Below, piece after piece: positions 1 to 48,818 of a stretch of DNA of 64,000 bases. Origin of the DNA: Psammoneis japonica. Lineage: Eukaryota. Each line of letters begins with the position of its first letter. Position 1 is the stretch's first letter. Both the position numbers and the translations under genes were made by a program. The stretch is from NCBI GenBank assembly GCA_008632985.1, contig QPGO01000103.1:186001-250000 (forward strand), written 5' to 3'. The notes below the pieces were generated by a model. It was not told the origin of the DNA. It saw only the letters and a program-made list of their open reading frames with translations, and ran no database searches.

Positions 1-1460
1 GAAACGCACGTGAGTCATGCTTCCTTGACGAGGACGCAGACGAACCCATTGTTCCAGAGAATCGCAAGACACCCAAAGCAAACTTTGAGAGTTGCCACCA
101 ACCTGGTGAGTGCTTGGACGACTCTGACGATGAAAGGTCGGAGGAGTCCAAAGAGGGTGACTGGGACGAAAATGAGGATGAGAAAGAGGAGAGTGAGGCT
201 GAGGAAAGAGAAAAAATGCAAGGGAAAAAGACTCAACTGCAGCGTCCGGCAATTCATTCAATTGCTCGAGGACCTTCTTGTCTTCCACGCATGGCACAGG
301 CTGGGTGATCCACCCATCACAAGCGTAACTCCCAGTTCATCTGTTCAGAAAATGAACAAGAAAATCCGTCTCCTCGTTGACCGGATGGTGCAATTCGTCC
401 CGCGAACAGAAGGACACAGATGGAAGCTTCAAAAGCTTCATGAAACACTCCATCTCCCAGTGTTTCTTTGTCATCACCGACATGCGATGAACTTTGATGC
501 AGGCTTGGGGGAATGTCTCTTGAAAGACTTTTTCAAGCTGCCGTCATCTGCCGCACAACAACGCAACCTCGACAGTTTTCTGAAGCAGGTCGTGTCACGT
601 GTGGAGGACCAAATGAGGCTCAATGCCGCAATTTCAGCCAACAGTTGGATTTTGCCAACTGGGAAAAAGGAATCATCAAGAGTCAGGACGGACAATCACA
701 TGCTGGGAGGAAGTGCGTTCACTCTCACCTACAACCAAGGGATTGGCGCTGTGACGTTTGAGTGGAACAGCGAGCATGCTCGTTGCCAAGTTCATCCTGT
801 GTTGCAAACTTCATGTCGGAAAAGTGGGAGGATTGTGTTGGTGAAGATAGTGAAAATGCACACCTGACTTGTAAGACAGAGTTTTACAATGCAAACAGGA
901 GGGACACGCACCGTGCGCACCCCGATTTCAAAAGCGAAGGACCATGGCATGACTTTGCCTGTGTGACCTTTGGCACACGAAAGGGCGATCAACAGTTTCC
1001 CTCCCGTTTGCCATGTTTCTTCGAACAGGAGTGCACAGGATCGATTTTTGCAGTTGTCCATCCAACTGCTTGTCAAGCTGACCAGAGAACTGCAAGGCAA
1101 CGGCATCAGCATGCAGACTTGGCCAGTTGCTGGCAGCTTGATCACAAACGAAACAACTGGCTGTCAATGCCTGAGAAGACTCAGTGCTCACCTGAGTTAC
1201 GTGTTGTCCCTGTCGAAGCAATTGGGGACAATGTTTTGGTTTATGAAGAATGTCCAGGAGCAGCAGAAGCGCAAGAAAAGGCCCCATTTGTTTGGGCCAC
1301 ACAGGACAGAAGGAAGTGTTGGTCAGATTTGTTTCTAAAATGGGATGCGCACATCAATCTGTCATTCACTCACAGTGTGTGCATTTTTAGAGCAATTGCT
1401 TCCTCACAGATTCCATGCAGTGTCCACTTGCACAGTCCATTTGGTCATCCTGCGCCATGA
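1..1460 (+). mobile_element. Degenerate Plavaka-like (diatom-type) transposase, C-terminal part, frameshifted near 810
   Basis: Motifs WKLQKLHETLH, NFDAGLGECLLKDFFK and THRAHPDFKSEGPWHDFACV resemble the KFH..H and YRAHPxY..GPWYD motifs of Plavaka-like transposases. Expected Tyr residues read as His/Cys. Confidence 0.6.
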
Positions 1461-6297: not shown

Positions 6298-6960
6298 GTC
6301 TAGCAGTGACAGCTACTACTCTCTACCACTAGCTCTAGCTAGAGCAGAGCTGTTCTATCATCATCACGCTCATGCTCACGCACGCACTGCACGAGGAGAG
6401 GATTCATTTGCACCCCCCCCAANAGGCATTCAGATTTAATTCGGTACAAATCTACGCAGCATTTTGCGTAGGGTGCACACGAACCACCAGGTGGTTCGTG
6501 TGCACCCAAAAATGCACACGGACCACCAGGTGGTTCGTGTGCATAAGCAGGGATAAAATCTGTAAGTTTTTATACCGGTAGAACCGAAAATCTGGAATCT
6601 GTGCAACGTCTGTCTTCCCCCCTCTTTAGTACAAATGTACGCAGGGTGTACACAGACCGCGCCGGGCCTACTTTTAACGCGCCGGGCCTGCAGAAGGGTT
6701 CTTCTAAGATCGCAGAATTAGCCGAGTTCCAGCAAAAATCAACCCCAGTTTTCGCCGAATCATTAAAAATTTGTGCTTTTTGAAAATCTGTACTGTTTCT
6801 GCCTATGACTCTGAATCGTCACAGTCCTAGCAGTGACAGTCTAGCATACTGCTCTCTACCACTAGCTCAGCCTAGAGCAGAGCTGTTCTGTCATCATCAT
6901 GCTCATGCTCACGCGCGCACTGCACGAGGAGGATGACTCGTTTGCACCCCCCCCAAAAAA
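6298..6960 (+). repeat. Imperfect ~130-bp direct repeat (~6298-6423 and ~6822-6960) flanking a ~400-bp palindrome-rich insert
   Basis: ctagcagtgacag...ctctctaccactagctc...agagcagagctgttct..catcatca.gctcatgctcacg...tttgcaccccccccaa occurs twice, with a single N at 6423. Confidence 0.75.
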
Positions 6961-8399
6961 AAAGCAAAAAGCTGCCATGCGGTGCAGTGAGGCGACGGGA
7001 ATGGCGGGACCAACTCAGATCTTGGTTTTGAGGTCTCCAAACTGCAGCAGATTTCTGTTCTGCAGTGAGAGAGATCCAGATGTCCTTGAGCAGGGATGAT
7101 GTGAGGTCAGAGTCGGGCGCGAGGGGGGCAGCTCTTGGCACTCAATGAGGGAGAAACAGGCTGCGTCTCTTGGGGTGAAGCCGCCCCATGGAAACGTGAA
7201 ACTTGCTGCAATGTGTCTCTTTCAACAAAGCTCAGAAGAGCTCTGACAAATTCAATCTCACATCACTTGACCTCCATGCACGTGTTCTTCTGACACCATG
7301 CTTTGTCATGGTTTGTGCTGCAGCAAGTGGCAAGAACACACCACTCTGCTGTGTTGGCGTGAGCCAGGAGCTGCATGCTGGCATCACAGCCACTGCAGTT
7401 GCTGCGTGCAGCATTGGGAGGTGAAAACAAAACCCACCATCACCAGGCTGTTTCAATCATGAGAGGGTGATGTGCATGTTTGTTGTGGCTGAAGATGTTG
7501 TCATGCTGTCAAACAACATTGCCTCATCTTTGCTGTGAGCTGTGAACACCATGATGATTTAGGATGTTTCATCACAGTTGTCCCCCAACATGTGGATGCC
7601 ATTGTTGTGGTCACTTGTCACACTTGTCATGGTCTCCTGATTTGGACATTTTGTCCATCTGTGGTTCCGCCATTTCCACCCTCCATGTGCTGTTTTGCAA
7701 GTCCTTGTGATGGCATTTTTGCCAGCTGTGTCCTGCAATGTCAAACTTCCAAAGTGAGGAAGTTGAAGTCCAGAAGTGCACATTGCAAATGCCCATGCAA
7801 GCTTGCACTTGTTCTGGAGTGAGCAACACATTGGTGCCATCAATGGCATCAATTGCAAGCGATCCATGCATGGAGGTCACACAGCAACTGGCCATTGACG
7901 TCACATCTCAGAAGCACAAGGAAGACTGTGTGTGCAAGGCATGTGCTGTGCAGCATTCATTGTCGTGTCCCAAGCTGAACTTGGGGCAATGCTTTTCATT
8001 CATGGATGAACACACTCACGCAGCTGTGTGAAGTGAAAGCAGCAGAAGCTTTCATGCAACACCAAACATTTCTTGGCCAAATGATGAGCCAACACTCAGA
8101 AATGTTCTCACAATTGCAGTCAACCACAATCTGTTAAAATGCTCAAATTTAAGTGCCCACTCGATGCATGATAAGGTGCAGTGATGTGTTGCTCTGGCAT
8201 GTCCAATGAAAAAGCGTGCTCTTGTTCAGACATCATCAAACCCTGCAAGCAATGCTCTCATCATGAAGAAGAGGGTTGCTCCTCCTGCTCCCCACAGCAT
8301 CCTCAGAAGAAGGAGCTGGCCAAAGGCAAGCACCAAATGCACAAGCTGCACATCATGACTGGTGACAAAAACAGTTGAACGCATGAGCTGAGGAGCATG

Positions 8400-8960
8400 C
8401 TGCACTTTGGTGCTGGAATGTGCAAAGAGTGGCCACTCCATGTCCGTGTTTCCAAGTGAGTCATTCTCAGACAAAATGTCATGACAAGGCCAGAAAAGCA
8501 CTTGTTGGCTCACAAGCTGCCAGAGGACAAGGCCATCATCACAATCAATGACAAGGCATCCAAGTGCCCCACCAAGACTAATGCCAATCATGCCAAATGC
8601 ATGAAAGTGGTGGTGGCAAGCATCTTCCCCAGGGTGGCGGCACTTCTCCAGAAATGTTGCTTGCAGTTTTTCTCATGCATGAGGAGCCTGCTGACATGAA
8701 GACTTGGGACTTTGTCACAAGGCCTGTTGAGATCAACAGCCACTCAAAGGAATTTCCTCCTGTTCTGGAAGTTGGAGATGCTCCAAGAACATTGTTGTCA
8801 GACAATGAACTCATTAATTTGCTCAAGTGCCCAGCTCCAAAGTTTGTCTTGTTTTGCAAAAACATTGAGCAAGTTGAAGCTGCCAAAGGTGGATTTCAAA
8901 AAGGTCGCTTCAAAAACCAAGGTGCCAAGGAAGTGGGGCCAAGGCAAAGATGATGCCCAG
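8400..8960 (+). mobile_element. Decayed Ty3/gypsy-type gag fragment
   Basis: PADMKTWDFVTRPVEINSHSKEFPP...LSDNELINLL resembles the diatom gypsy gag motif KP.DM..R.FV.RL.EIN.YL..FPP...LSD.EL. Multiple frameshifts. Confidence 0.6.
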
Positions 8961-10263
8961 AATCACTCATCAAAAATCACAATCACAACTCAAAATCATG
9001 CCTGTTGTGGTGGTGTGAATTGTGGCCATTTGACAGGATTTGAGCAGGATTTGGGTGCGCGCGAAATGTCGCGCACTGTTCAGTTTACCGCGCACAGTTT
9101 TGTGTGCTTTAGTTCCGCGCGTTCGCGCGCGATGTAGTTTGCTTTCGAGCCACAAGGCTCACAAGAATGACAACAGCAGCCCGATTGTGCCGACTTGCAC
9201 GTCTTTTGGCTCCTGTGGTGGTCTCTGAGCGGAGACTCATCTGCTGTTTGGACAGCAGCAAGGAGTTGTTGTTTGAATTCTTGCCATTTGCCTTCAATTT
9301 CTGTCAGATTAACAGTCTTGCTCATTGTCAACCCATTGAGCAACCGCCATCGTCGTCGTTGATTTACCAACGATGCCGCTTCAATTCTGCGTGGACCTCC
9401 GTGCATGTTCTGCATGCATCGGCAAGTCTGCACGCATTCAACACCAGGGCATCGGCAGGAAGTTAACATCACCGTCAAGTCTCCTTGCCGCTGGACATCT
9501 GGATTGATTGTGCTGCCTTTGGTTGCTGAAGACATGCATTCAACGGTCACACCCAAGTCTGTCCTTGATCCTCATCCCTTGATGTGCCTGTTCATCGGTC
9601 AACGGTCAAGAACCCTGCATGTTCAAGGATCTTCGTCGCTGAAGACACATGCATGTGTGCACATCTTCACGGCCAAGAACCTGTGCCCACTCTTCGGACT
9701 GCGGTTTTGCTGCCACTCTGCGAGCACACCGAGTCCATTGCACCTGATCTGCCCCGGACCACTGGTGCTCTGCAGTTCCACTGGGTCCACGAGGATGACT
9801 GTGAGAGCAAAGCAGCCGTGATTGCAGCCTGCGTTGGGGCGAGGGTGCTTTCCCGTGTTTGTTCGTTCGTCCACAGTGCCCAACGCCTACGTCAACTGGC
9901 CAGCCTGATCGGGAAATCCAACCGACATAAAACAAGAACGGTTTGGGGGTCTTGTCCACCTCTGGTCAGCTTGCCTGCAGGGGTTTGCAACCCGCTGCTC
10001 TGCTCGTAAGCAACCCAAAGCGCCGCCAGCTGCGGGTTCGGACGTGCCGGCACAACTCTACGGACCGGATGGGAAGTTTAGCACTTGACAACGAACGGGA
10101 CAGCACAGCCCGGCGACTTCTGATTTTAAGATGGTCCAAGATTTCAAGTCAAGTCTAGCTCAAGTCAAGTCTTTTTCAAGCCAAGTTCCAAGTCAAAACT
10201 CCGAGTCAAGATCGCGCTCTAGATTGGTTCCTGTCTTTTGTTTCTGCTGCACCGTCCTCCGTC

Positions 10264-12297
10264 ATGGTTCTCACGCGACAGCAACAAACCGAAAGCTTCA
10301 AATACATTCTGTGCACTGTGCTCAATCAAGACGATGACAGCCCTTTTCGTTCTGCCCTGTCCATCAACGGGATTGAATCGTGCGAGGAATTGTTCACGTT
10401 CTTGCCCACCCAAATTGATGCCCTCACTTACAGAGACGGCGCCAATGTAGTGCCTTTGCCACGGACCCACAGAAACCTCCTAGCAGCTTTGATCAGCTTC
10501 TGCTTTGTCAAAGTTTGCAATGGTGATGATGTGACCAATGAACCCCAGTTGCTCACACCCGAGGAATTTCGCAACTACCGCCTTGGTCCAGACTACTTGG
10601 CCTCTCTAGCCACTGGCGCAGCACCCTCCGCACCTGTGCCGAGTCCCTTGCCATCCAAACCAGATGAACCCAGTGCCATTTTGACACCAGCCTTGCACTG
10701 TGCCGCCACTCAGGTGTCCCCTGGAAGTGGTGTCAGTCACGCCCCGCATGTCTTGACCAACCCGCCTGCAAGCAACCTCGGCCCAGTGCAGGATTGCAGC
10801 CCTTGCACAGGCCCACACTTCGAGACCAGTTGGGACACTCCACCCATGGCTTCCAAAGCTGCAGTCTTTGCACCCCGCAAACCACGTGCTGCCAACCTCC
10901 ACGTGTCGACTTCTGTCGCTGTCACCCTTCACAGTCTTCGTTTGGGAAGTGATGGAGGTGACAACTTGCTTCTCGCATCTCCTGATGGGGAGCCTCCTTT
11001 TCCCGTCATTGAATCTGTTCACAACAGTTCAACCGGTTCATCAGATGGGGAGTTCAGGACATCCAAGCAGCTTCGTTGTCTTTGGATGCCCCAAGTCTCG
11101 TGCCTTGAGACCAGGCCTCCTGATTGGATGCCTCAAGTCTCGCACCTCGAGACCAGGCCTCCTGATTGGATGCCCCAAGTCTCGCACCTCGAGACTGGGC
11201 CTCCTGATTGGATGCCCCAAGTCTTGTACCTCGAGACTGGGCCTCCTGATTGGATGCCTCAAGTCTCGTACCTCGAGACTGGCAGGATGCCCCAAGTCTC
11301 GTACCTCGAGACCAGGTCTCCTGATTGGATGTCCCAAGTCTCGCACCTCGAGACTGGGCCTCCTGATTGGATGCCTCAAGTCTCGTGCCTCGAGACTGGG
11401 CCTCCTGATTGGATGCCCCAAGTCTCGTACCTTGAGACCAGGTCTCCTGATTGGATGTCCCAAGTCTCGCACCTCGAGACTGGGCCTCCTGATTGGATGC
11501 CTCAAGTCTCGTGCCTCGAGACTGGGCCTCCTGATTGGATGCCCCAAGTGTCGTACATCGAGACTGGGCCTCCTGATCGGATGCCCCAAGTCTCGTGCCT
11601 TGGGACCAGGCCTCCCAACTGGACTCTCCACGTCTCGTGCCTCAAGACCGGGCCTCCCAATTGGATCCTCCACATCTCATACCTCAAGACTCGGCCTCCG
11701 GATTGGATCCCTCAAGTCTTGCACCACGAGACTCGGCCTCCTGATTGGATCCCCCAAGTCTCGCACCTCAAGACTTGGCCTCCTGATTGGATCCCCGAAG
11801 ACTCGTGTCACAACACTGGCAAGTCCTTTTGGATCCCAGAAGTCTTGCAGCACGGGACTGGTTGCCCCAATCAGACATCTGCAGCCTTGCACCACAAGAT
11901 GTCTTGCTCCAATCCGATCCCCAAAGGCTTGCACCTTGAGACTCGTTTCTCCAATTGGATCAGTCTCTCAGGAGATGCAGTTGGATTGGTGGAACACAAG
12001 ACCACCGCTTGTGCCTTTGAACTGATGCTTGCTCTGTTCCCCGAGTCATGCAAACGCCATGCCGCCTGCAATGTTGCCCCACCGTTCAACATTGTCAACC
12101 AGACCAAGCTTTGCTCCTTCCATTGCAAGCGCGGATGTGGAATCCCACAAGATCCCAAGTGTGCCTTGAGCTTTGAAAAGCACAACGGCATCTGCAATTG
12201 GGGAGACGCAGCTCATCTCAAGATGACCCACTTGGAGAATGCAACGTTGCTCTTGGATCTTGATCCTTTCTTGTCTCCTCATGTTTTGGTGCTTTGA
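10264..12297 (+). CDS. Gag-like N-terminus fused to a 14-aa tandem repeat region (ORF of the LTR element)
   Basis: MVLTRQQQTESFKYILCTVL...LTPEEFRNYR resembles diatom copia gag N-termini and is followed by (ETGPPDWMPQVS[Y/H/C]L)n. No protease, integrase or RT motifs. Confidence 0.6.
   Translation: MVLTRQQQTESFKYILCTVLNQDDDSPFRSALSINGIESCEELFTFLPTQIDALTYRDGANVVPLPRTHRNLLAALISFCFVKVCNGDDVTNEPQLLTPEEFRNYRLGPDYLASLATGAAPSAPVPSPLPSKPDEPSAILTPALHCAATQVSPGSGVSHAPHVLTNPPASNLGPVQDCSPCTGPHFETSWDTPPMASKAAVFAPRKPRAANLHVSTSVAVTLHSLRLGSDGGDNLLLASPDGEPPFPVIESVHNSSTGSSDGEFRTSKQLRCLWMPQVSCLETRPPDWMPQVSHLETRPPDWMPQVSHLETGPPDWMPQVLYLETGPPDWMPQVSYLETGRMPQVSYLETRSPDWMSQVSHLETGPPDWMPQVSCLETGPPDWMPQVSYLETRSPDWMSQVSHLETGPPDWMPQVSCLETGPPDWMPQVSYIETGPPDRMPQVSCLGTRPPNWTLHVSCLKTGPPNWILHISYLKTRPPDWIPQVLHHETRPPDWIPQVSHLKTWPPDWIPEDSCHNTGKSFWIPEVLQHGTGCPNQTSAALHHKMSCSNPIPKGLHLETRFSNWISLSGDAVGLVEHKTTACAFELMLALFPESCKRHAACNVAPPFNIVNQTKLCSFHCKRGCGIPQDPKCALSFEKHNGICNWGDAAHLKMTHLENATLLLDLDPFLSPHVLVL
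11083..11960 (+). repeat. 42-bp tandem array, roughly 16-20 units, degenerating toward the 3' end
   Basis: Unit tggatgccccaagtctcgtacctcgagactgggcctcctgat is repeated head to tail without spacers. Confidence 0.95.
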
Positions 12298-13049
12298 CTC
12301 CAAAGTTCTTTAGTCAATCCGAAGTCGAATCTGTTTCTGTGGCTCCTCAAGCAAACTGGGGAGTGACAGGATTTGAACAGGATTTGGGTGCGCGCGAAAT
12401 GTCGCGCGCTGTTTAGTTTGCCGTGCACAGTTTTGTGTGCTTTAGTTCCGCGCGTTCGCGCGCGATGTAGTTTGCTTTCGAGCCACAAGGCTCACAAGAA
12501 CAATGACAGTAGCCCGATTGTGCCAACTTGCACGTCTTTCGGCTCCTGCAACGGTCTCTGAGCAGAGACTCATCTGCCATTTAGACAGCAGCAAGGAGTC
12601 ATTGTTTGAATTCTTGCCATTTGCCTTCAATTTCTGTCACCATTTGACCAATGAGTGCCAAACTCTGCAGCATCCAGCCAAGTTTGTGAAGGCTTTGCAT
12701 CCATCCATGACCAAAAAGAAAAATGATGAAGAGGAGCTGAACACCATCACGTCAACCAAGTGGTCAAGAAAGTGCTCAAGAGTGAGAAACCAAAGTCCAC
12801 TCACCTGGTTTGCTGTCAAACAATGACTTGCATTTCTTTAGAATCTGAAGCAATTTTTCCTGTTGAAAATTGTCAAGAATTTTTTGTGTTTTTGACCAGT
12901 GACAGCAAATCTGCCATGCAACATTTCACCACCATGAAGACAGTCAAGACTCTCACACTGTTGCTTTTTAACTGCTCAGACTCCTCAACATGAAAAGAGT
13001 CATTGGATGTGATGTCCAGATGTTGCTTTGGAATTGTTCCCCATTTTCT

Positions 13050-13440
13050 TGAGGTTGTTGCTCAACAGTCTGACACAAAAAAACGTGGGTCAACACCTGG
13101 ATTTTCTAGAGTGACTCGGCCAATTGTCACACTGCAGATGCCCCATCTGCCCTCATTCAAGCAGACTTCAGATTCAATTGTGGCTGTCTGAGACATCTCC
13201 AGAAGCCTCAAGTTGACTGGGCAATGCTTGCTTGTCTTGAGCGCTCCTGCTGCAACAGTTCCCTGGCTTGATGAGGCTGAATTTTCTCTTGGAGTTTCAG
13301 GCCACGGTGAGCATCAACTGGTGTGCCACGTGCTCCACTGTCAAACAATGCTTTTAGAACATTTTTTTGCATTTGCTGTGCATGGATTTCAAGGCTGGAA
13401 ACAATGGCAGTGCAACATGCTTGAGGTTTTGCCATTTTCT
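13050..13440 (-). mobile_element. Decayed gypsy-type aspartic protease fragment
   Basis: LKALFDSGARGT (D-S-G active site), followed downstream by SVTIGRVTLENPGVD, which resembles YD.IIGRD.L..LG.D. Confidence 0.55.
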
Positions 13441-14521
13441 GGGTTGGCCTGCAGCATGAGTTCCAGAGAATTGAAGAGTGGGCACTGGCGGCATTGAGAA
13501 ATTTGTCGGTGGTGAACCACCAAAATCATCAGGACATCAGGACTGTCATGCCAGCTTCTTTCTCAGACCATGTGCAGTGCCCTTCATCTTTGCTGTCAGA
13601 ATCCTCTGAAAGCACCAGTGTCTTGAATTGACTCGACTCTTCCTCACGAATCTTGCGCTTTGGTTTTGCAGCAGAAGCTGGCCATCAGCACTGCACCTCA
13701 GATGCGTGTGCATGTGCGAGGCATGTGCTCAACAGCATTTGTTGCATCCCAAGCTGAACTTGGAGCAGTGCTTTTCATTTGCAGATGAACATGTTTGTGC
13801 ATTTCTCAGCCAGCCAAGCGAGCCAACAAGCTGGCAATGTGTTCTCACAGTTGACAGTTGCAGCCAATCGTGTCCTGATGAACTGCCTCAAAATTCAGCT
13901 GCCTGCTTGCAGCATGTGAGGCACCGCACCCCACCACCAGCATCATTGGCAGCAAGGTTGGACAGGTTGAGTCATGCAAAATGAGACTCCAGCATGTCAA
14001 AGCCATGCCAAAAGTTGTGCGCTGATTCAGCCTTTCATGAAAGCTGAAAAAGTGCCTGTTCTTTTGCCAAAGATGGTGGTCAGCACCAGCCACACTGGCA
14101 ACTCCCCCAGAACATTTCTTTTCAGAGTGCTAGAAAGACCCAAGAAAAGCTGCCATTTGAGATGTGCCAAGCTTTGTGTCTGTTTTTTTTGCAGCTTTCG
14201 CCAGGTGGTGTGCACCCCGCACTTCTTTGCCGGCCATGCTTGTCACAGCAGCGCAGGAGCTGGCCAAAAAATGTGATTGCTGTGGCCATTGTCTTGCACC
14301 TGCTGCTGCAGTCATGATTTGCAGCAAGAAAAGCTTGTTGCAACAACCGTCTTCAATGCGCGCAATGACTCGGCGGAGATTGGAGATGCCAGCGTGATGG
14401 AGTGGTCAGCGCCCTTCCCCATCTGTTCATGTGGCAGGAGGTTTTCACCCACAAGGAACAAGCTGCTGCCAGCCCACTCTTTTTTTCCTCCTCAGCACTG
14501 TGCTGTGTGCTGGCAATGAGC

Positions 14522-14543
14522 AGAGAGAGAGAGAGAGAGAGAG
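14522..14543 (+). repeat. (AG)n microsatellite
   Basis: Run of agagag... Confidence 0.9.
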
Positions 14544-15245
14544 CTTGCTGCTTGGTGGTGCGCAACCCTTGTGGCTCTCTTGCAGGAGCATCGTCGCCTC
14601 TGGGCTCCCCACCACTTGCAAGCTCCAGCTCGAGGTCTGGTTTTTCGTGGCTCACGCTGCAGGGCTGTGGCCACAAGTGAGGAGAAGGCAGCGAGCAGAA
14701 GGCAGCGAGCGACAGAGAGCCATCGTCTTGTGATTGCCAATTTTTGTCAACAGCTTCGACCTTTGTTGCTGCTTCATCCCATTAATCATGTGTTCAATCT
14801 TTACTATTTATAAAAACGCACAGTAAATAAATAATGAGCACGTGCTGTCCTTTAATAAAAATAAAAAGGATTAAATGTCAATATACGAGGAATTAATTAG
14901 GAATATCAAAATTTGTAATGACCAGAGTTTTCTTGAATCATGTTTTCGCATATGCTTACCTTCATCATCGAACATGAGGAAATATACACATTGAAGAGGC
15001 GGAGAAAAGAGACAGTGAACACCAACATGCGATAATAGCTGCTGCTTCGCGTTGTTGCTTGATGCGTTTTACATCGCGGTTTACAACAGGAAAAGGGAAC
15101 GAAACGAGCTCTGCAGTAACTACTTTCACGTCTTTCTTAGGCCTTCTTTGACTATTAGACCAATCTGCTTTCAATCGCATTGAGTTTCAGGGCTTTTCTC
15201 CCTCATCCGCATCGTTCGACTGACTAACAACAGCCACATAGGCTG

Positions 15246-18261: not shown

Positions 18262-21200
18262 TGTTGATATGTAGAGTCACTTGTATTTCGATCTATGTTG
18301 CCTTTCGATGCCGGGTACCCTCTAAAAGGTTCCTTGCAAAAATCAATGAGAGAAAGGGGGGGAAGAAGGAGGGTGGGAGGGAAAAAACCGAACTCTTCCC
18401 TGACACCATTCTAGACTATCACACGTCATTATTTCATAAACACTGTACGAACTCTGACCTCATAATGACGTGTTTATATAATGATTTTGAAAATGCCGTT
18501 AATATGACGGATTAGGATAACGCCGCAGAACGCCACCATGCTTGTGCACGACCGTGACATGTCTCAACGTTGATCGGCGTGAAACGGCACTCGAAATGTA
18601 GAGCTGTGGATCTTTTGTGACAAATCTTTAGAATGGACAGCTTGTTGTGGAGCTCATTTTTGGCCAGCACACTCTTGGTTCTTCACTGCAAAGCCAACTG
18701 GTTCACACAGAGCCAGCACATCAGATCTGGTGCACACGCCACCACACTCATGGCTTTGCCTCCACATGCCCGACAAGGAAAGGGCACACAAACCCAAAAA
18801 GATTTTTTCATTTGACCAAGGTGCTGCCTGACTGCATTGTGTGCACCAACAACCCAGCCATGCCAAAGTTCTGTGCACCACCACACCACCCATCTCCGCC
18901 ATGCACAAACATCAACAGAGCTCGCGCTGAGTCGCTTTTGGCCACAATGGCCGGCGTCACTTGGCCACGCATGGAAGGTGCTGACCTGCTTTTAAATTTC
19001 TTGTTTGGCACCTGGCATTGTGTGCAGCAACACTCATTTTCTGCAATTGCTGGCTGATGCTGAGCATTCTTTCTTGTTGCCTCCTCTGCACACAGGCGGG
19101 GGTCAAGATGAGCCCGCGTCTCATCGCGGTTGCTCATCTTGACAAGTGCTGCTTGGCTGTTGTGGGCATGCTTGCATGTGTTTGCAGCAAGCAAAATTTG
19201 TCACCCACAAAACAGCAGCACAAGACTTGGACACTTTGCTTGTGCACAGAGTTCTGGAGTTGGAAAAAGCCACAAAAAGCTGTCTTTCTGCACAGGAAAA
19301 CTTGCATCACGGGACAAATGGGAATTTTCCTTGGAACATTGGGGGTGGATCCCCACCTTCATTGTGGGACCCCGCAAACAAGGAGGGACCCACAATCCAG
19401 AAATGTGTGGAGAGTGTTGCGTGAGCGCAGTTTGCGCGGGTTTTGCGCCAGAGCCATCTCTCGCGAACTGGGTGTTTTTTCAGATTTTTGTGGAAATTGC
19501 ACCAGTTTTGCGCATGTGGGCTGCATGTTTCAGCGTCACATGCAAAAATTTGCTTGGACCTCTGAGGGTCCCTCTGCATTTGTGGGGCCCCACAGCGAAC
19601 CTCAGTGGCACCTCTGTGCTGCCACAGTGGCAGATGGTCAGCCAGCTGAAATTTGTGCAGAGGGAGACAGCCAGCAGCAGGCACCACACCCACAACCCAC
19701 AACAAGGTCCTTGGCAAGCAGACAATGTGGAGGGTGCTGCAGAAGTTTGCACCAACAGTTGACCCAAGAAAGAAAAAATGCTGTCACAAGAGCTGCTGGG
19801 CTGCAGTGGGCCCAGGAGCTTTGTCAATTCAGCGCACTGCACATCCCCATGAAACAAAAGATGCTGTCAGGCTTGCTGCAGTGCAGTGCACATTCATTCA
19901 TCAGCAGCATCAGGAGGAAGATGTGAGCAATGCTGGGGGCATTCACATGGCAATGGCATTGTTTGCTGCCTTTGCAGGCGAAACATGTGTGGAGAGCACT
20001 CATGGCAACTTTGCATTCCCACGCTGTGTTGATCTTTTGTGACAATTTTTTGGAAGGACAGCTTGTTGTTGAGCCCATTTTGGCAAGCACTGCTGCTGCA
20101 AAATTGCACAGCAGAGTTGTTGCACACACTTGCATGATTTTGTGTGCGCACATCCATCAGAGGAGGGGCACACAGATTCTTGCCTTGTCAACACAAGAAC
20201 CCACCTGCACTGACTGGGTCACATGCTTGCTGGCTGTGTTGTGCTGTGTTGTGCTGTGTGCACTTAAAATCATTGCCAGAGCTCCACTCACCAGCCTCAC
20301 CCTCACAAATCAACATCCACAACACACACACAAGCTTCCTCCTGCCACCTTGCCTCCACATTTTTGTTTCTTGGTGTTCAGCACATGGTGGCATGTGACA
20401 ACGTGGTGGATCAAGGCTCTCATTTTTTGCAGCCACACCAGCTGCTGGCTGGCACAGGTGCTGTCACTCATGATGATGGTTGGCTCATCTTGACAAACAT
20501 CAGATGCATTTGTGGCTGTGCGCACATGCTTGGAACCAGCAGAAATTTGCCTGCTGCAGGGTGGCTGGCACAATGCTGTGGGACACATGACTCATGTGTG
20601 GAGAGAGGCCCAGAGAAAGAAAAAAAATGCCTTGGGAGACCTGCAAGGAGCCTTGCTTGGGTGGCCCGTCCTTGGATGACAGCACCGCCAAGCCAACAAA
20701 CAGCCACAAAAAATGCTTTTCTGTGACAAAAATTTGCACAAAATCGTGAGCAGGGCAGCTCTGCACACTGGAGGGCCAGCAGGGGAGAAGCTCAAATTGC
20801 TGAGCCTGCCCTTGCACTAAAATGGCAGTTGGGCCATTCTCAGGCTTGCTCCTCAAACTTGTGCAGGGACAGCCAGAAGCTGGCTTGCACCACACACACA
20901 GCATGATGGTTCAATGGAGTGCTGCCATTTTCACTCTGTGCAAGATCTCTCACTTTGACGTGCTGCCACTTGGCACAGTGTGCAGAGCAGCCGCTGCAGC
21001 AGAAGGAGCTTGCCCTGGCCATGGGCCTGCTTGTTCAACAAAATGATGCTGTGAGGTGAGAGCCACAGAGTTGCAGGAGCTTTGTTTTGATGTGCTGCAT
21101 GCAAAGAAACCAAAAAATGCTGTCACACCTACCACAACATGGTGCAGTCAGGGCCGGTGAGAAAGATGTGTGGGTGATTGCCAACATGCCCTGTCAGTTG

Positions 21201-22110
21201 AAATTGTCTCTGCATGGTGGCAGCATTGCTTTCAACTTGAGTGGGTGTTTGTGGTGTTTGCAGAAGACTCAAGAGAGCTTGGTTGCTGCATGGCAGAGCA
21301 TGGTGATCACAGCAGCCACTGGGAGCCAGAAAGCTGTGTGTCAGGCAGTGCATCCAGAGAAATCAAGCAACAACATCTCAGGTCTCACAGGGAAGTTGGA
21401 ACATGGGGTTGTGCAAAATGCATCATCTTGTGAGAATTTTGTAACCCTGCACCATGGCATGCATGTTCAACATTGTTCAATGGACTTTTGGACACTCAAG
21501 ATTTGTTTTCTGCACAGCAGCACAGTGCCTGTTTGCATGCAGAAGATGGCAAATTCTGTGATTCAATGATCGTCGAGGAAGCCCACAGATGATTTGTGAT
21601 TCAAGAATCTTGTCAACTTGCTCTGAGTGAATGACAAGAACACAAAGGGCTTTCTGGCTGAAGAGCAATGAAAAAAAAAACTGGGTGGAATCAAGAGGAA
21701 CACACTGCCATGGACTGGGTCTTCAGAGGGGGGTTGAGAATCAGAAGAGGAGAGAGTCAGCTCCATGGCATCACCCACATCAAGGTGTGCTTCCCACAAT
21801 TTCCATGTTTGGAAAAGTTGGCAAAGAATGGCAAATCATTTGGTCACAGGCCGAACCATGGAAGTGCTTTGTGGATCAACCACCACCGCTTGGGCAAGGA
21901 CCACGAGAGGGCATCTGGGACAAAAGTTTCCAAATTTTGCCTACAGTCCTGGTCCGAATCACACCGATGGATGCAGAAAAAGGAGACGCAGATCCCAACA
22001 CCTCACTCTTGCCTGGAACTTGACAGGCACACCCAAATAACAACTAGGGGTCTACTCAATTGGGTCTTTCTTCGGATACAGTCCTCACAGCTACAAAGCA
22101 GATCTAACTG

Positions 22111-24358: not shown

Positions 24359-26277
24359 ATGGCGGCGAAAACCTCTCTCCTCCTTCTTCTGGATGGCATA
24401 TTGTCGCAAGCAGATGATCAGATTCGAGATGCTTTGACCCAAATTATGGACAATATCGAAAGAAACGAAGCAGTGGTTTCACCACAGGCAAAATCCATCG
24501 TTATGAGTTTTGACCCGGCTGCCGTCGGAGTTGGTGGTTCGCTTTCCAATCTTCCTGATGTAGTCAGAGTACTGTTGGAAGCTGACCCTCAAACAGCATC
24601 TACTCCTAGTGACCTGGATGGATCTCTACCTCTTCACTTTGCTGCCTCACTGGGTGATGTGCGGGTAGCTTCTATTTTGATAGCAAAGGTAAGTACTTTT
24701 CTGAAGCTGTATTTGAGTCTCCACAGCGTAGTTCGCGTCGGACAAACACACGCTGTCTTACGCCACACTTGTAGTACCCCCGAGCTACATCAACCCCAAA
24801 TAACAAGGGTAAGTTGGCCCTTCACTACGCCGCTCGGGAAGGCCGGGACGAAATGGTATCCTACTTGCTTCGAGTTGATCCAGCCACCGCCAGGATGGAT
24901 TCATGCAAAAACAAGCTACCCCTTCATTTTGCCGCTGGAGAAGGATATGTCCATGTCGTGCGTCATTTGCTTCACGCTTATCCAGAGGGCGCATCCGTTC
25001 CGAGCTCCAAGGGTAAAATGCCTCTTCACTTTGCTGCTCGTTGGGGGCACATTCAGATTGCAAAGGATTTGCTTGCCTTGTACCCCGACGGAGTAAAGGC
25101 TCTGGACTGGGAAGGTTCTCTTCCTCTTCATGATGCGGCACGAGAAGGCCAAACCGCGATGGCTGAGCTGCTGGTGGAGCGCTATTGTCAGGGCTTGAGT
25201 ACGGCAAACCTAAGAGGCGAGATTCCGTTGTTTCCTGCTGTACGGAGTAACAATGTCGAATTGGTTGTCTCCTTGCTACAGGCGTGGCCCAGGGGAGGCA
25301 AGCAAATTTTGGCCAGTGCTTCTGCGGATGACAACGTTGAGAATTGGGATAACAATATCCTGGAGTTGTGCCTGCGGGGAGCGGTAGGAAATTTCTACAA
25401 TTGTTCAATTGGTGGAAGAAAACTGGCTCCCGCCCTCTGCCACTGCGGCCAAGTTTTTACTTCATCTTCTCGGCAGCATGTCAATGGCGACAATGCTTCG
25501 GATGGACCTTGTCAGTGCCACAGTGAGAACAAATTGAAGGTAGTTGGCGTCGGCGAGAACTCTGTAAGAGCTTATGCAGCAGGTGACACCTACGCACCTC
25601 ACGTGTTGGATGAAAAGAAGCCATCTGCTGATGAAAGGGTGGTTCCGGATGTTGCACACCTACCTGATGATTCACTTGTCCTGATTCGACGTTCCAAGTC
25701 TCCAATGCTTGAGTTGAAGACAAGCAAAAAGAGAGGTTTATCAACGGACAGTGGAGGAAAGAAACGATTGCGTTCCGGAAGCCTTTCTGGCACGTCCAGT
25801 GTTGCGCTAAGGTTGCAGGAGTTACCCCGCGAATTCTATCATCTCCATGCCGCAATCGAATGTGGCGCTACCTCTCACGTCCTCCGGTGCGTACTACAGA
25901 GGCATGCAAGCCTAGTTACCAAGGTTGATTGCTTTGGACAGCTGCCTCTTCATATTGCTGCCGCTCATAGCCGCGATCCAGAAGTGATTGACGTTGTCTT
26001 GGAGGAGATATTGCGAGTATATCCACAGGCTACCTATATACGCAACCACTTTCGTCAGTTGCCATTGCACGTTGCTCTCTGTTCCAATGCAGACTTTCGG
26101 CTTATAGAAGCCCTGGTTAAGGCCAATCCATCATCGGGTTTCGAACGTTGCCGGACGAACGATAAGTTCATTGACTCGCTACCACTGCAAATGGCAACCG
26201 AATCCGGTTGTGATCTTAGCACTACCTATCTTTTGCTCCGTGGCGACCCCAATTTTGTTCAGAAATTTGTTGGCTGA
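24359..26277 (+). CDS. Ankyrin-repeat protein, intron 24689-24774
   Basis: Multiple G.LPLH.AA repeats. The GTAAGT...TGTAG intron joins ...ILIAK to YPRATSTPNNKGKLALHYAAREG in frame. Confidence 0.9.
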
Positions 26278-26635: not shown

Positions 26636-26742
26636 CGACGTCATGTTACAACAGTGTCTTTTGTGGGTTTCCCCGAAAGAACTCATTTCTGTCATGTTGC
26701 AACAGCGTCTTTTTGGGGGGGTTTCCCTGGAACTCATTTCTA
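26636..26742 (+). repeat. ~52-bp tandem duplication
   Basis: gtcatgtt(a/g)caacag.gtctttt...gggtttccc...gaactcatttct occurs twice. Confidence 0.75.
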
Positions 26743-27796
26743 GATCATTGGGGAGCTTTTCCAATCTCCATTCTTGTCATGCTGAGGCAGGGGCGGGCAC
26801 AGCTTGCAACCAGTGGTTGTTGGGGTCAACATCAAGATTGTTCAAAACATTTTCTCATGAATGACAAGTCCATCAGCAACTCAAATTCAAAATGGCACCC
26901 CGCCCCCTCTGATTGACAATGAAGGATCTGTGTCATGGGGCCATCATTTTGTTGTTGCACACTTGAGGCATGGAAGAATCCTTGTCAGCCAAACAAGTCT
27001 GAGCAACATCAAAATCTACGTGACTCCATTGAGGGTTGGGAATGAATCAGGTGAATCAAATGGGGCAGCAGGAGCAAGACACCAGCACCAGCAGAAGAAT
27101 TGCCACATCAGAAGAACCCAACTCAGTCACTTGATCAGGGATGACAGCACCTCAATTGGAAAGACCAGTGGCTGCATCACCAGAGTGGGTTGTTTGTTTG
27201 TTGCAACATGTGGGAGCAGGAGCATCAGAGGATTTTTAGCAACACCTTGCTCCAAGATGCATTCTCTCCTCCGTTGGAGGCATGGAGCTGTTGTTAGAAA
27301 TTTGGAGGCATCATGGCTCATCATTGGGAAAAGCACTGCTCTGATTGAGAAACAAAGAAAAATCCAATGTGTGGCTGATGTTGCAACACAAATGATGAAC
27401 CAGTGCTCCATGGCAAGTGCACCCCACAAAGAGGATGCTCTTCAATGTCTTGGAACATGGACAAAAATGCACAATGTTGGGTGGGTTTGACAGATGACTG
27501 GGCAGAGAGCAACAACTGCCAAAGAAGCAAAACCCAGCTGATGGGGCAGTTTGTCAGCTGTTCTGGCCAATCAGATTGTTGGGTGGAGAGCAACCACACA
27601 AGCACACAAGAAAGCCCAGCTGACAGGCAAGTTGTTCATCTGTGATTGTTTGATTGAGATTGTGCCACTGGCTGTGAGTTGGCATGCACAATCAGACAAA
27701 TTGAGCAACAATTTAAAAAGGTTGAATTTTCCCAACTGGCACGTCAGAAAATCTCAGCCATCAGCACCAGACTTGGCTGTTCATCCTCAAGTTGCA

Positions 27797-29240
27797 CTGT
27801 GGCAAAACTGCTCTCCTTCTTCTTTTGGACAGCAGATGACAAAAATTCAAGATGCCTTAACCCAGATTGTTGCCCCAAGAAAGAAATGGGTGGCAGTGTT
27901 GCCACAGACAAAATTCATTCTTGTCACATGAGTTTTGAGCCAGCTGCCTTCATCTGAATTGTGGGTTTGCTCTCCAATCTTCTTCCTGATGTGATGCAGC
28001 CAGTTCATTGTTGGAGGCTGGCCCTCAGCCAAGCTGCATCCTGCCCCAGTGCCCTGAGTCAATCTCCACCTTTTTGCTTTGCTGCCTCACTTGGTGACAT
28101 GTGGGCAGCTTTCATTTGAGAGAAAAGGCAAGCACTTGTTCTGAAGCTGTGTTTGAGTCTCCACAGCACAGTTCATGCCCAACAAATGCACTTTGTCTCA
28201 CTTCACACTTTCTCATCACTCCTGAGCTGCATCAACCCCTTCACTGCACCACTCATGAAGGCCATGATGAAATGGCACCTTGCTTGCTTTGAGTTGATCC
28301 AGCCACTGCCATGTTGGATTCTCATGCAAAAAGCAAGTTGCCCCTTCATTTTGCTGCTGGAGAAGGAAGCCTCAATCTTGTGCATGATCATTTGCTCAGT
28401 GCTTGTTGAGAGGGTGGTGCATCCACTCTGAGCTCCATGGGCAAACTGCCTCTTTATTTTCTCTGCTCATTGGGGCAAATTTGCAGATTGCAGAGGATTT
28501 TCTCACCTTTTGCCCCATCTGAGCAAATGCCCTGGACTGGGGAGGCTCTCTTGTCTTCCTCGTGCTGTTTTGCACACTGAGCAGATGATTTGTGTGTTCT
28601 GATCTGTTGTTCAAAGCCTCCATCCCTTGAGCCAAAGATGGCTGAGCAACAAAAGAGGTTTGTCATGAGATGGTCAAAGAAAGAAATGGCTGCATTCTGG
28701 CTGCCTTTCTGGCTCTTCCCGTGTTGTGGTGCTGAGGTTAGAGAAGCAGCAGCCTTGCAAATTCAAGTCATCTTTGTGCCACTGCCAAACATGGTGCAAC
28801 CTCTCATGTGCTCTGCTGCACATTGCAGAGGTGTCCAAGCCAAGTTGCTGATGTTGATTGCTTTGGAGGACAGCTTCTGCCGCTTCACATTGCAGCCACT
28901 TGCAGCTGTGGCACAAAAGTGCTGGTTGCCGTTGTTTCAGAGGAGACACTGCAAGAGAGCGCACAGGCCACCAGCAGTGCACTTTGCTTGCTCTCATGCT
29001 GCAATGCAAACTTTTGGCTTGTTGCAGAAGTCCTGGAAAAGGCCAGCCCACATTGTCTGGTTTCAAGTGTTGTTGGACAAATGTCCCGCCACTGCAAATG
29101 ATGGCTTTGCCAAATGTGGTTGTAAGATCTCTTGGCACTGCCTGTCATTTTTCTCTGTGGTGGCCCCCACATTTTGTTCAGAAGTTTGTCAGCTGATCCT
29201 CATGAAAAAAAAAAACAGCTGCACCTGGCTGTGATGGCTT
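27797..29240 (+). pseudogene. Heavily mutated copy of the ankyrin gene at 24359-26277
   Basis: Colinear similarity from the 5' end (gcaaaactgctctccttcttctt) through the intron to the 3' end (tttgttcagaagtttg), with internal deletions. TpA and CpG are converted to CpA/TpG and the donor GTAAGT has become GCAAGC. Confidence 0.88.
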
Positions 29241-29987
29241 TGTCTTTGAGTGTGCAACCCTGGCACCATCACATTGTGCAGCAGCACGCTTTTTCCACAG
29301 AGCAGCTTTTTTGTTTGGCAGCCCGCGTTGTTGGACACCCTTTGTGAAAGTTTTCTCATTTTTTTGGTTCCTGGAAATGGCTCCAGGATGACACAAGCAC
29401 TCAAGGCTCAAGTCATTTTGGAAGTTGCACCTGGTGAAAAATTGCTTCAACGGTGGTGTCACAAAGACAGAGCGGCCAAACACAGCAGCCATCATCAACG
29501 AGTCTTTGAGCCCCACATTTGTTCATGACTTGAGCTTGCAATCCAGTGAGTTCATCCATCTGTCCATCTTCTGACCATCACTTTGGCATTGTGCACAGGC
29601 TCAAGGTTTTTTTTGGGGGGAGGGGGGGATTTTGCAACAAACTGGGCAGCCCCACCACTCTCGTCACCGTGACCCGAGCCCACCCGAGCGGCAGATGAGT
29701 TGCCATTGCCAATGCTCCACTGCACCATCCATCAACACGATGGCAATGCCGCAACATCAGCACAATGATGGCAAACCAATTGAATTTTGAATTGCGATGA
29801 GGTTGTGCCGTCCGTGCTGCAGGGGTGCCGGTGCGCGCCAAGTGCGCACTGCCATGCTGCATTGGAAAGCTCAGGTCTCGGGAGGTCTCACTTTTTACTT
29901 TTTACTCTCACCTCATCACTCATCACCTCGCAAAGAAGTCAACGAAGCCCCGCCCAGCCAGCTGTACCTTGTACCTCGCAGACGATT

Positions 29988-30943: not shown

Positions 30944-30955
30944 TTAGTTAGCAGC

Positions 30956-31990
30956 ATGGTGGCGAAAACCCCTCTCCTCCTTCTTCTGGATGGCATATTG
31001 TCACAAGCAGATGATCAGATTCGAGATACGTTTACCCAGATTATGGACAGCATCAAAAGAAACGAAGCAGTGGCTTCACCACAGGCAAAATCCATCTTTA
31101 TGAGTTTTGACCCGGCTGCTGTCGAAATTGGTGGTTCGCTTTCCGACCTTCCTGATGTAGTCAGAGTACTGTTGGAAGCTGACCCTCGAACAGCATCTAC
31201 TCCTAGTGACGTGGATGGATCTCTACCTCTTCACTTTGCTGCCTCACTTGGTGATGTGCGGGTAGCTTCTATTTTGATAGAAAAGGTAAACACTTTTTCT
31301 GAAGCTGTATTTGAGTCTCCACGGCGTAGTTCGCGTCGGACAAACACACGCTGTCTTACGCCACACTTTTAGTAACCCCCGAGCTACATTAAACCCAAAT
31401 AACAAGGGTAATTTGGCTCTTCACTACGCCGCTCGGGAAGGCCGGAATGAAATGGTATCCTACTTGCTTCAGATTGACTGCCTCTTCACATTGCGGCCGC
31501 TCATAGCCGCGATCCAAAAGTGATTGACGTTGTGTTGGAGGAGATATTGCGAGTATATCCACAGGCTACCAAAGTACGCAACCACTTTCATCAGTTGCCA
31601 CAGCACGTTGCTCTCTGTTCCAATGCAGACTTCCGGCTTATAGAAGCCCTGGTAAAGGCCAACCCGTCTTCGGGTTTCGAACGTTGCCGGACAAACGATG
31701 AGTTCATTGACTCGCTACACTGCGAATGGCTACCGAATCCGGTTGTGATCTTAGCACTACCTATCTTTTGCTCCGTGGCGACACCAATTTTGTTCAGAGT
31801 TTGTTGGCTGACCCTCGGAGAGTGAATGTTTAAAGCTAGTAGCTACAGCTATATATGGTATTCATTCAGGCGATTGCGGTCATGTTACATTAACGCTATT
31901 ACCGGTACTTTTTTTGCTTGGCAGCCCGCGGTAATGAAAGGTTTCTTTTGTTAGGCGTTCCGTCCCCAACGAGTTTCTTTGTGACTGCTA
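30956..31990 (+). pseudogene. Second, near-identical but internally deleted copy of the ankyrin gene, including its 3' flank
   Basis: MVAKTPLLLLLDGILSQADDQIRD matches 24359. The junction near 31470 joins sequence equivalent to ~24875 with ~25940. Frameshifts present; TpA sites retained. Confidence 0.88.
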
Positions 31991-32100
31991 TTACGACTCC
32001 TCCTTTTTGACTACCCCACTTTGCGTTCAACGCAAATCAAAGGAACCGATGAGCGACAGCAGACCAAAAGGAAACGTCCTCATACGGTACCGAATGCGAC

Positions 32101-47003: not shown

Positions 47004-48818
47004 AATCTGTACTACTTCAGGGCTGAGCGACGGCATTACAGAGTAGAACATGATTTCTTGCAAACACTCAAAATTGATAAGAGTAGATTGCCTACGTTAT
47101 CTATTTCTTTGGTTCCTTTTCTTTTCCGTCGTTCTCTTTCATGGGGGGGATTGAATCTCTGCCACAGTGCCATTTGTGGACACAAGAGTCATCATCTTTG
47201 AGGTGCAGACGAAACAACAGGCACAAGGGGGCATCAACGGACCCACCACTGTAAAACTTGTCTGAACAGAGTGAAACAAAAACACCCCTTCTTCGTTGGT
47301 CAAAAGCCGTTTGGAATCCCTTCCATCTCATTGGCCAGTTCTGGCTCATCATGGTGTGATCATGTGATGCTGTGAATTTACTTGGACAACATCAGTTTCT
47401 CTGCTGGTTTTGGTCTTTGCTTCAAACACCTGCCATGTTACACCAAATGCAACAATTGTTGTTCCTGATGACATTTGCTCCTTGCATGCTGTCACATGAT
47501 TGATGCAGCCACTCCAGAAGCCACAGTTCATGCAGTCTTGGCAAGGCAGGCAGTGGCTTCCAAGTGTGTTGTGGGTTGGGCAGCACTCTCCCATTGTGAA
47601 AACCACCAGCTCTTGGCCACAGCAATGAGTGTGACTTTTTCACCAATGACACCCAGCAGCCCATCTCAGAAAACCTTTCCACCATCTGCAATGCACCCTG
47701 GCACAGCAATGAAGCCCTTGTCATCAGGGAGTCATCCCTCCTGTTGGCATCACCATGACAGACTCGCAGAGCTCCTTTTGGGAGCAAAAATCTCCACGTG
47801 CCCCTCCTCATCTCTCAGCCTCTCAGCTTTTTGCATTCTTTGGGTGCACTTTGTGACACTTGACTGGATCAGCCAACAGTCATTTTGGGTGCAATGTGCA
47901 AGAATGGCACTTAAATCCAGTGCACATGCTGTCAGCTGTCACCAAATTGTGGGGGTGGAGTCACTTGGAGCCTCCCGCACAGCTTCCTCTGGAGACAGGA
48001 AGAGCTGCTGTGCTTGTTGTTGCACTGACGGCAGTGTGCTGTCACTTCCTTGATCCATGATGTCAGCTTGACAGGCACCATCACTTGTTGCAGATGCAAT
48101 GGCACTGCACATGGGGAGTTTTGCCACTGTCTTGTTCTTGGCGCAAGTTGTGTTGTTGCAAGCAGCTGCTGCTGCGCACACACCATGGTTGACACCTGAG
48201 GGCAAGGAGCAGGCACCCACTCCTGCCATTTTTGCTGGCAACAACAATTTTGTTTGGACCCATTGAGTCAAAGAGATGGGGGGGGCACATGCAGCACAAA
48301 AGGGGCAGGACAGCTTGGAGAGAGTGACTTCAAGACAGCAAAAATCGCCACAGCTTGTTCACACTGATGAAACGAGGATTTCATCACCACCGCTGCACTC
48401 ACTGGGGCTCACCACCCAAAGAATTCTCAGAGCATTTATGATGTCACTGAGCAGTTGACCATTGAAGGCCGAGGATGGGCTTTTGTCAAGAGCCTTGCAA
48501 TCGGACTGCTCTCAGAGGATGCAGCAGAGATGCTGTACCTCATGGAAATGACGGCGGGCGGGGCGGCGGGCGCGGGAGGCGCCTTTTCTTAATGCGCGCC
48601 ATCGCGACCATGATGATGCGACGAGCGACGACGATGATTCGCGCAGATGGCTGTCATCTACTGTACTCTCGCATTTCGTATCATGGAAAGGTAAACAAGG
48701 CGTAGGCAAGCACAAGACACACTGATCAAGTGAAAAGGCAAGGCAAGGAAAGCGCTGTTTGGAAAAAAGGCACGTGACAAAAGCAAGGGATAAAAAGAGC
48801 CAGAGAAGTGAGGAAATA

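Follow-up and report, generated by a model that had tools for sequence, protein, structure and literature searches.

Loss of TpA dinucleotides from pseudogenes and transposon-like DNA in a diatom

An ankyrin gene and its degenerate copy

The DNA analysed here, a stretch of 64,000 nucleotides that we call the window, comes from the diatom Psammoneis japonica (assembly GCA_008632985.1, contig QPGO01000103.1, positions 186,001 to 250,000 of the forward strand) and is nuclear. It holds an ankyrin gene (gene A), followed on the same strand by a degenerate copy in which no TA dinucleotide aligned to the gene survives (copy B) and by a truncated copy of ordinary composition (copy C). Gene A is made of a first exon (24359..24688), an intron of 86 nt (24689..24774, GTAAGT...TAG), and a second exon that ends at the stop codon (24775..26277); its spliced frame of 1833 nt is intact, with 610 codons and one terminal stop. 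The ankyrin matches fall on exon 2, where Pfam Ank_2 reaches 104.5 bits (E = 4.4e-30) against a curated cut-off of 27.3. A contig of run X2 joins position 24686 to 24773 (the cut shifted by +2) and drops 86 nt with GT..AG ends, which are the intron of gene A; the library type of this run is not recorded, and we take the contig to be derived from cDNA.

Copy B (27797..~29330, forward strand) was delimited by its blastn matches to gene A, one with 71.7% identity over 752 columns (A 24409-25122 with B 27831-28552) and another with 65.7% over 668 columns (A 25652-26280 with B 28570-29199); it has no counterpart of A 25123-25651. Because the 86-nt intron of A is aligned in B over its full length, copy B is a DNA-level duplicate and not a processed (retro-)pseudogene. 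It is an old one, with a background divergence of ~17%. Copy C (30949..32021, forward strand) matches gene A by blastn with 93.3% identity over 522 columns and 81.6% over 604 columns, and carries an internal deletion of 1.07 kb. Its observed-to-expected ratio (O/E) is 0.81 for TA and 0.97 for CG, as computed for the 1-kb segment 31001-32000.

The gap-free columns of the A/B alignment contain 46 TA dinucleotides of gene A and none of them is kept in B: 17 have become TG, 17 CA, and 12 something else. A preliminary description of this locus, made from the letters alone, had reported about ten alignable TA sites, all converted; every site quoted there reads as described, including the splice donor GTAAGT (24689-24694), which has become GCAAGC in copy B (28128..28133, forward strand), and the full alignment makes the claim stronger, with 46 sites changed out of 46. 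Its account of TA stands, although it did not mention that CG was lost just as completely: only 2 of 64 CG in gene A are kept in these columns of B, 30 having become TG and 23 CA. The remaining 14 dinucleotides are kept at 39-81% (AA 65%, CA 71%, GA 59%). Counted per site, A and B differ at 50 of 99 TA positions, at 65 of 131 CG positions, and at 182 of 1045 others (17.4%); that about half of the TA positions differ is the expectation if a single hit destroys the dinucleotide. With a background of 17.4%, our arithmetic gives an expected retention of ~68% of the TA, against the observed 0 of 46.

The excess depends on the 5' neighbour of the adenine. Counted on both strands, A has become G at 37 of 92 TpA, 18 of 171 ApA, 18 of 172 CpA, and 20 of 164 GpA sites, i.e., at 40% of the adenines in TpA versus 10-12% of the others (56/507; Fisher P = 1.7e-10). 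The comparison of TA with AA, CA and GA sites had been chosen beforehand as the one that could overturn the account, which came through it. C has become T at 54 of 127 CpG sites (42.5%), versus 10-11% at other cytosines. The TG and CA outcomes of TA loss are equally frequent (17 each) and both strands are affected about equally; no significant clustering of strand-coordinated TG or CA was found in B (runs test P = 0.19). In the domain of copy B, transitions from CpG to TpG or CpA and from TpA to TpG or CpA have both run to completion.

The direction of these changes, from TA to TG or CA, is secure because gene A is intact and spliced while copy B has lost its start codon (which reads CTG), its splice donor, its reading frame (28 of the 43 indels between B and A are not multiples of three), and its tyrosine codons, none of the nine aligned ones being kept (5 Cys, 1 His, 3 other). 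Arginine codons are kept at 5 of 27 aligned positions, the others encoding Cys (7), His (5), Trp (4), Gln (3), Met (1), or a stop (2). Further support comes from the three-way alignment of A, B, and C (920 usable columns), in which all 40 TA common to A and C are lost in B; of 41 CG common to A and C, 2 are kept there. The preliminary description had used the third copy (at 30956) as an outgroup to orient the changes. Its agreement with the gene is borne out by these 40 sites, but the role of outgroup has to be abandoned: A and C are sisters, and three-taxon parsimony alone cannot root the long branch of B (lineage-specific changes over the 920 columns number 33 in A, 28 in C, and 254 in B). 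The direction itself is upheld by the intact, spliced gene and its decayed copy, not by C as an outgroup.

TA-depleted blocks and their contents

Copy B lies in a sharply bounded, TA-depleted block of 3.2 kb (26742..29895), where runs without any TA are as long as 773 bp; if TA occurred at its normal rate, a run of 500 bp would have a probability of 7e-10. Delimited as 26742-30235, the block has O/E values of 0.06 for TA, 0.23 for CG, 1.80 for CA, and 1.71 for TG. It reaches 1 kb upstream and 0.5 kb downstream beyond the ankyrin homology, and no terminal inverted repeats were found at its ends. A transposon such as a Pack-MULE may conceivably have captured copy B. Eight such blocks cover 26,578 of the 64,000 bp (41% of the window), with O/E values of 0.00-0.08 for TA, 0.18-0.66 for CG, and 1.5-2.0 for CA and TG, while the 37,024 bp outside them have values of 0.62 for TA and 0.97 for CG. 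The others lie at 1..3852 (TA O/E 0.08, CG O/E 0.66), at 6874..14782 (three adjoining blocks that include a long terminal repeat (LTR) element; TA O/E 0.00-0.06, CG O/E 0.42-0.48), at 18630..21941 (5 TA in 3312 bp; TA O/E 0.02, CG O/E 0.20), at 47103..48436 (TA O/E 0.05, CG O/E 0.18), and at 55741..63591 (with a myosin fragment and a MULE transposase; TA O/E 0.05, CG O/E 0.42). TA is at its floor in every block while CG O/E varies, and TA loss therefore saturates ahead of CpG loss.

The block of copy B is also present in a contig of run X1, 4847 nt long, which covers 26218-31001 with ~99.6% identity (13 letter differences and 9 gapped letters). Within the block, this contig and the window differ by a TG/CA double at 27142-27143 and by TA versus TG or CA at 26784, 27237, 28416, and 28456, which is a weak hint that TA was still being lost once two haplotypes or strains had diverged. 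Differences between the two amount to 11 events in the block and 7 in flanks of comparable length, no clear excess of diversity for the block. From run X2 there is no contig that covers 26388-29780, which says nothing on expression.

The LTR element (9031..12639, forward strand, 3.6 kb) provides a clock for the process. Its 276-bp LTRs (9031-9306 and 12364-12639) have TG..CA ends and the element is bordered by a perfect 5-bp target-site duplication, CCATT (9026-9030 and 12640-12644), from which it follows that the two LTRs were identical at insertion. They are now 92% identical, with 22 mismatched columns: 5 TG/CA doubles (10 columns), 4 cases of TA versus TG or CA, 6 of the CpG type, and 2 others. 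Sixteen CG are still common to both. Each TG-versus-CA double implies a TA of the inserted element that the two LTRs lost in separate events, and our arithmetic gives at least 14 of 22 lineage-sites mutated for TA, against 6 of 44 for CpG and ~2 of 420 for the others. TA was thus lost at roughly 7 times the rate of CpG and ~100 times that of the background, which is a rough figure and a lower bound. That LTRs, once identical, now differ at TA-derived sites means that the loss happened in place, after integration. TG/CA doubles in controls of ordinary composition number 0 in 520 columns of A and C, and 1 in the 850 columns compared between two DUF3431 genes arranged in tandem (34412-35286 and 36832-37682), which are 80% identical over 875 bp, have normal composition, and serve as an unmutated duplicate. 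The Pfam search found no reverse transcriptase or integrase domain in the LTR element, which is probably non-autonomous; its internal frame of 677 codons consists in part of tandem repeats (11082-11861).

The last block holds a MULE transposase frame that is almost free of TA (60329..62107, forward strand, 593 codons; Pfam MULE E = 3.2e-7). It encodes 2 tyrosines in 593 residues, while the tyrosine content of 30 of its 31 homologues is 1.4-4.5%. At the 11 columns where tyrosine is conserved, it has no tyrosine, 3 Cys, 2 His, and 6 other residues; conserved arginines are kept at 15 of 23 positions. Metagenomic loci that encode relatives of this transposase have a TA O/E of 0.38-0.91 in 71 of 71 cases, and no second TA-erased example was found among them. 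Three of these loci (L065, L036, and L048) have a CG O/E of 0.04-0.24 with ordinary TA (0.60-0.68); the decay of CpG therefore does not entail that of TA. Given the ordinary TA of all 71 relatives, the loss is not native to this MULE family, nor is it a by-product of CpG decay. One metagenomic MULE homologue of 702 aa, P0152, lacks tyrosine altogether, the conserved-tyrosine columns being occupied by H, R, F, or L; judging from its protein sequence, TA may have been erased in this way from a further environmental genome.

The same block contains, ~2 kb upstream of the MULE frame, a pseudogene fragment of a myosin head (57928..58383, forward strand; Pfam Myosin_head E = 9.6e-19). In comparison with solved myosins, it has H or C where tyrosine is invariant, and C where arginine is. 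The fragment may be a piece of the host captured by the transposon, in the style of Pack-MULEs, or a separate dead gene. The claim that the process strikes DNA derived from host genes, and is not just the composition of transposable elements, is supported by copy B, the LTR pair, the conserved-tyrosine columns of the MULE frame, and its 71 relatives.

The depleted DNA (26.6 kb) contains 86 stop-to-stop frames that span 110 aa or more and in many cases overlap one another on the two strands; 68 of them are free of tyrosine (example regions are 10757-12022, 18985-19923, and 61945-63051). A Pfam scan of the 86 matched only the myosin and MULE frames.

By their Pfam matches, the genes of the window encode Sec23, cyclin, FTR1, FMO-like, ankyrin, and leucine-rich repeat proteins. 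The Sec23 gene (51088-53642) has 64-72% identity to its best diatom-like matches (68% to Thalassiosira pseudonana, 70% to Phaeodactylum tricornutum), with none closer. A gap of 397 N (36108-36504) separates the DUF3431 genes. Between copies B and C there is a gene (29990-30900) that matches no Pfam family. Near 30624-30625, a 1-bp insertion is present in the contigs of both X1 and X2, and X2 has a further insertion of 7 bp after 30099; these may reflect a frameshift error in the window or a variant allele. One X2 contig extends from 29909 to 31280, into copy C.

Sequence context and candidate mechanisms

The base 3' of the adenine matters too. A has become G at 28 of 53 TAY sites versus 9 of 39 TAR sites, Y and R being a pyrimidine and a purine (P = 0.005), and sites with TAY on one strand only have the predicted outcome in 18 of 23 cases (P = 0.011). 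Retention in depleted relative to normal DNA, strand-symmetrised, is lowest for TAT (0.01), followed by TAC (0.06), TAG (0.10), and TAA (0.15); among the TA that survive, TTAA, CTAA, and GTAA are over-represented, and none is in ATAT or ATAC. The TpA process affects both strands about equally and is faster than CpG decay and far faster than the background. It needs no sequence homology, since other duplicates in the window are untouched.

We consider it probable that the silent DNA of this diatom undergoes hypermutation targeted at TA. The depleted domains would be silenced chromatin, probably with methylated cytosines, in which transposons and dead genes reside. There, an enzyme would convert the A of 5'-T-A-3' into a base that is read as G, most likely by deamination of adenine to hypoxanthine, and would prefer a pyrimidine 3' of its target (T-A-Y). 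The loss of CpG in the same domains would be the ordinary deamination of 5-methylcytosine. The outcome would work like a genome defence: every tyrosine codon turns into a His or Cys codon, splice donors and TATA-like signals are destroyed, and stop codons never arise.

Several points weigh against this account or limit its reach. The TA dinucleotide is palindromic, so that A>G on one strand is indistinguishable from T>C on the other, and some of the TA still present could be secondary, derived from CA or TG, a possibility that would bias the analysis of context. In copy B, 12 of the 46 TA changes are other than simple transitions, and this copy by itself, being old, only shows that TA mutated at least ~10 times as fast as the background; the ~100-fold estimate comes from the 22 mismatched columns of one LTR pair. 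The flanks of B inside its block (26742-27790 and 29330-29895) have no match in the window: local alignments that tolerated transitions, with gene X, the sequence 5' of A, that following C, and the entire window as targets, gave scores within the range of shuffles or only marginally above it. Finally, where the run contigs depart from the window in flanks of normal composition, 3 of the 9 differences are also of the type TA versus TG or CA (25170, 26353, and 31575), and because of this the polymorphisms inside the block are weak evidence for an ongoing process. These three differences may reflect a low TpA mutability outside the blocks, or chance.

The alternative closest to targeted adenine deamination keeps the targeting and changes the chemistry: a modified or oxidised thymine in R-T-A, of the 5-hydroxymethyluracil or 5-formyluracil type, would pair with G and give T>C. 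The context data fit such a lesion and T-A-Y deamination equally. This route would parallel that of 5-methylcytosine at CpG, and TA and CG, both pyrimidine-purine palindromes, are lost in the same blocks and both end as TG or CA. In dinoflagellate DNA, 5-hydroxymethyluracil occurs with a preference for TpA, and 5-formyluracil forms a mispair with G; to our knowledge, however, no such modified thymine is known in diatoms. TA also disappears far more quickly than CpG, and the two losses are in part independent (CG O/E of 0.18-0.66 with TA at the floor), and the authors of the sole experimental precedent, in Bigelowiella natans, read it as adenine deamination in the available part of their preprint, which together make thymine chemistry unlikely in our view. 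That nothing was targeted at all, the pattern resulting from neutral decay with CpG methylation, from selection or a native composition against TA, or from an artefact of assembly or base-calling, could appeal to the age of copy B and to the mild under-representation of TA across the window (O/E of 0.62 outside the blocks). It is hardly credible in view of the complete loss of the 46 TA where ~68% should remain (P = 1.7e-10), the inability of pseudogenes to be selected for TA avoidance, the normal TA of the MULE relatives, and the X1 contig that reproduces the block.

A defence resembling the repeat-induced point mutation (RIP) of Neurospora, in which duplicates are recognised by homology and then mutated, would suit the fact that B is a duplicate and that most of the depleted DNA is repeat- or transposon-like. 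According to the accessible part of PMC9998398, diatoms encode DNMT4 enzymes related to the fungal RID, of unknown function. Yet A and C are untouched in spite of being 93% identical over 520 bp, as are the two DUF3431 genes with 80% over 875 bp, although RIP would strike both members of a pair; the flanks of B were struck without a second copy in the window; and the chemistry is reversed, RIP making TpA from CpA where here TpA is erased. We judge this reading very improbable. ADAR-like hyperediting of RNA from A to inosine, before reverse transcription and insertion, would explain the A>G changes with a 5' preference for U/T and the effect on both strands, as in the editing of double-stranded RNA. 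ADAR enzymes prefer a G 3' of the edited A, whereas the preference here is for a pyrimidine. The LTRs of a single insertion differ at TA-derived sites, hence by changes posterior to integration, B keeps its intron and its block extends beyond the homology to the gene, the MULE, which is a DNA transposon, was also struck, and the haplotype contigs differ in place at TA sites. Editing of RNA is thus extremely unlikely to have produced the pattern.

Known systems and the place of TpA loss among them

The nearest counterpart of TA-targeted hypermutation in this diatom has been described in mutation-accumulation lines of B. natans, where two silent integrated viral regions mutate at ~1000 times the genome rate (bioRxiv 10.64898/2026.01.13.699255, Mettrop et al. 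2026). According to the available part of that preprint, the changes are almost solely from TpA to TpG or CpA, in silent single-copy viral inserts, the genome holds clusters depleted in TpA and enriched in CpA and TpG, and the authors propose an ADAT2-like deaminase (bioRxiv 10.64898/2026.01.13.699255). Their clusters are defined by at least 3 consecutive windows of 1 kb with rho(TA) <= 0.43 and rho(CA+TG) >= 1.52; both thresholds are passed by 22 of the 64 such windows of our stretch, which form 5 clusters of 3, 3, 3, 3, and 6 windows. The two cases share, within what that part of the preprint describes, the nearly exclusive change of TpA to TpG or CpA, the confinement to discrete regions, the independence of copy number, and the presence of transposase domains in the depleted clusters, those of B. 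natans also including reverse-transcriptase domains. They differ in the host, which is here a diatom, i.e., a stramenopile, and there a chlorarachniophyte, and in the extent of the depletion, which is here saturated (TA O/E of 0.00-0.08 over 41% of the window), compared with 0.45 reported for the insert of a nucleocytoplasmic large DNA virus in B. natans. The targets described there are silent viral inserts, whereas here pseudogenes derived from the host (ankyrin and myosin) were struck besides the MULE and the LTR element. CpG is lost here in the same blocks, while the term CpG does not occur in the available text of the preprint; the T-A-Y preference is a further difference from what that text reports. 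The rate of ~100 times the background, a lower bound drawn from one LTR pair with 22 mismatched columns, compares with the ~1000 times measured there in living lines. The words diatom and stramenopile do not occur in the available text either, and our full-text literature searches returned nothing on diatoms in which TpA is depleted or hypermutated. We rejected the SPLASH preprint as a diatom precedent: the hypermutation it deals with concerns immunoglobulins.

RIP, as known from Neurospora and other ascomycetes, changes C to T mainly at CpA, creates TpA, needs homology, and mutates both copies. The process in the diatom resembles it in that dinucleotide-specific transitions at the DNA level destroy transposons and duplicated genes and leave blocks of skewed composition, and is unlike it in that TpA is destroyed, the O/E of CpA and TpG rises to 1.5-2.0, and A and C are spared. 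The natural substrate of the TadA/ADAT2 deaminases is an A that follows a U (tRNA positions 33-34), which in the case of the bacterial TadA is followed by a C. The substrate context of these enzymes, and of the adenine base editors derived from them, fits T-A-Y; an activity of a diatom enzyme on DNA is pure inference. The decay of methylated CpG is a third point of comparison: it turns CpG into TpG or CpA in transposon-like blocks, as it would have done at 53 of the 64 CG of gene A in copy B, and accounts for the CpG half of the pattern only, not for the loss of TA. The transposons of Phaeodactylum have DNMT5-dependent methylation, according to the accessible part of PMC9998398.

One could go further and see in these blocks the product of a dedicated genome defence of diatoms, guided by chromatin or small RNAs, with a T-A-Y DNA adenine deaminase as its effector, erasing every TpA from silenced DNA at 100-1000 times the background independently of homology, shared with chlorarachniophytes, and forming an ancient counterpart of RIP in SAR (stramenopiles, alveolates, and rhizarians) with the opposite chemistry. 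We advance this extension only tentatively, and find it rather doubtful as a whole.

Targeted hypermutation of TpA has been described once before, in the 2026 preprint on B. natans, and the window presents a saturated instance in a diatom. To that description it adds that pseudogenes derived from the host are struck, that homology is not needed, that CpG is lost jointly, a rate obtained from an LTR pair, and the T-A-Y context. These additions come from natural experiments assembled in a single window: a gene with its dead copy, a pair of LTRs, and two haplotypes. With the direction of change, its action in place, the rough rate, and the T-A-Y context as constraints, fewer candidates need to be considered for the enzyme, perhaps a DNA adenine deaminase of natural origin. 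Genome annotation is affected as well. TAA and TAG disappear together with TA, and no stop codon can arise from the change; DNA from which TA has been erased therefore carries long, false frames free of tyrosine, which gene predictors will over-call. The occurrence of the pattern in a diatom, after that in a chlorarachniophyte, suggests that SAR algae may commonly have the process, and that it may be a major force acting on their repeat DNA.

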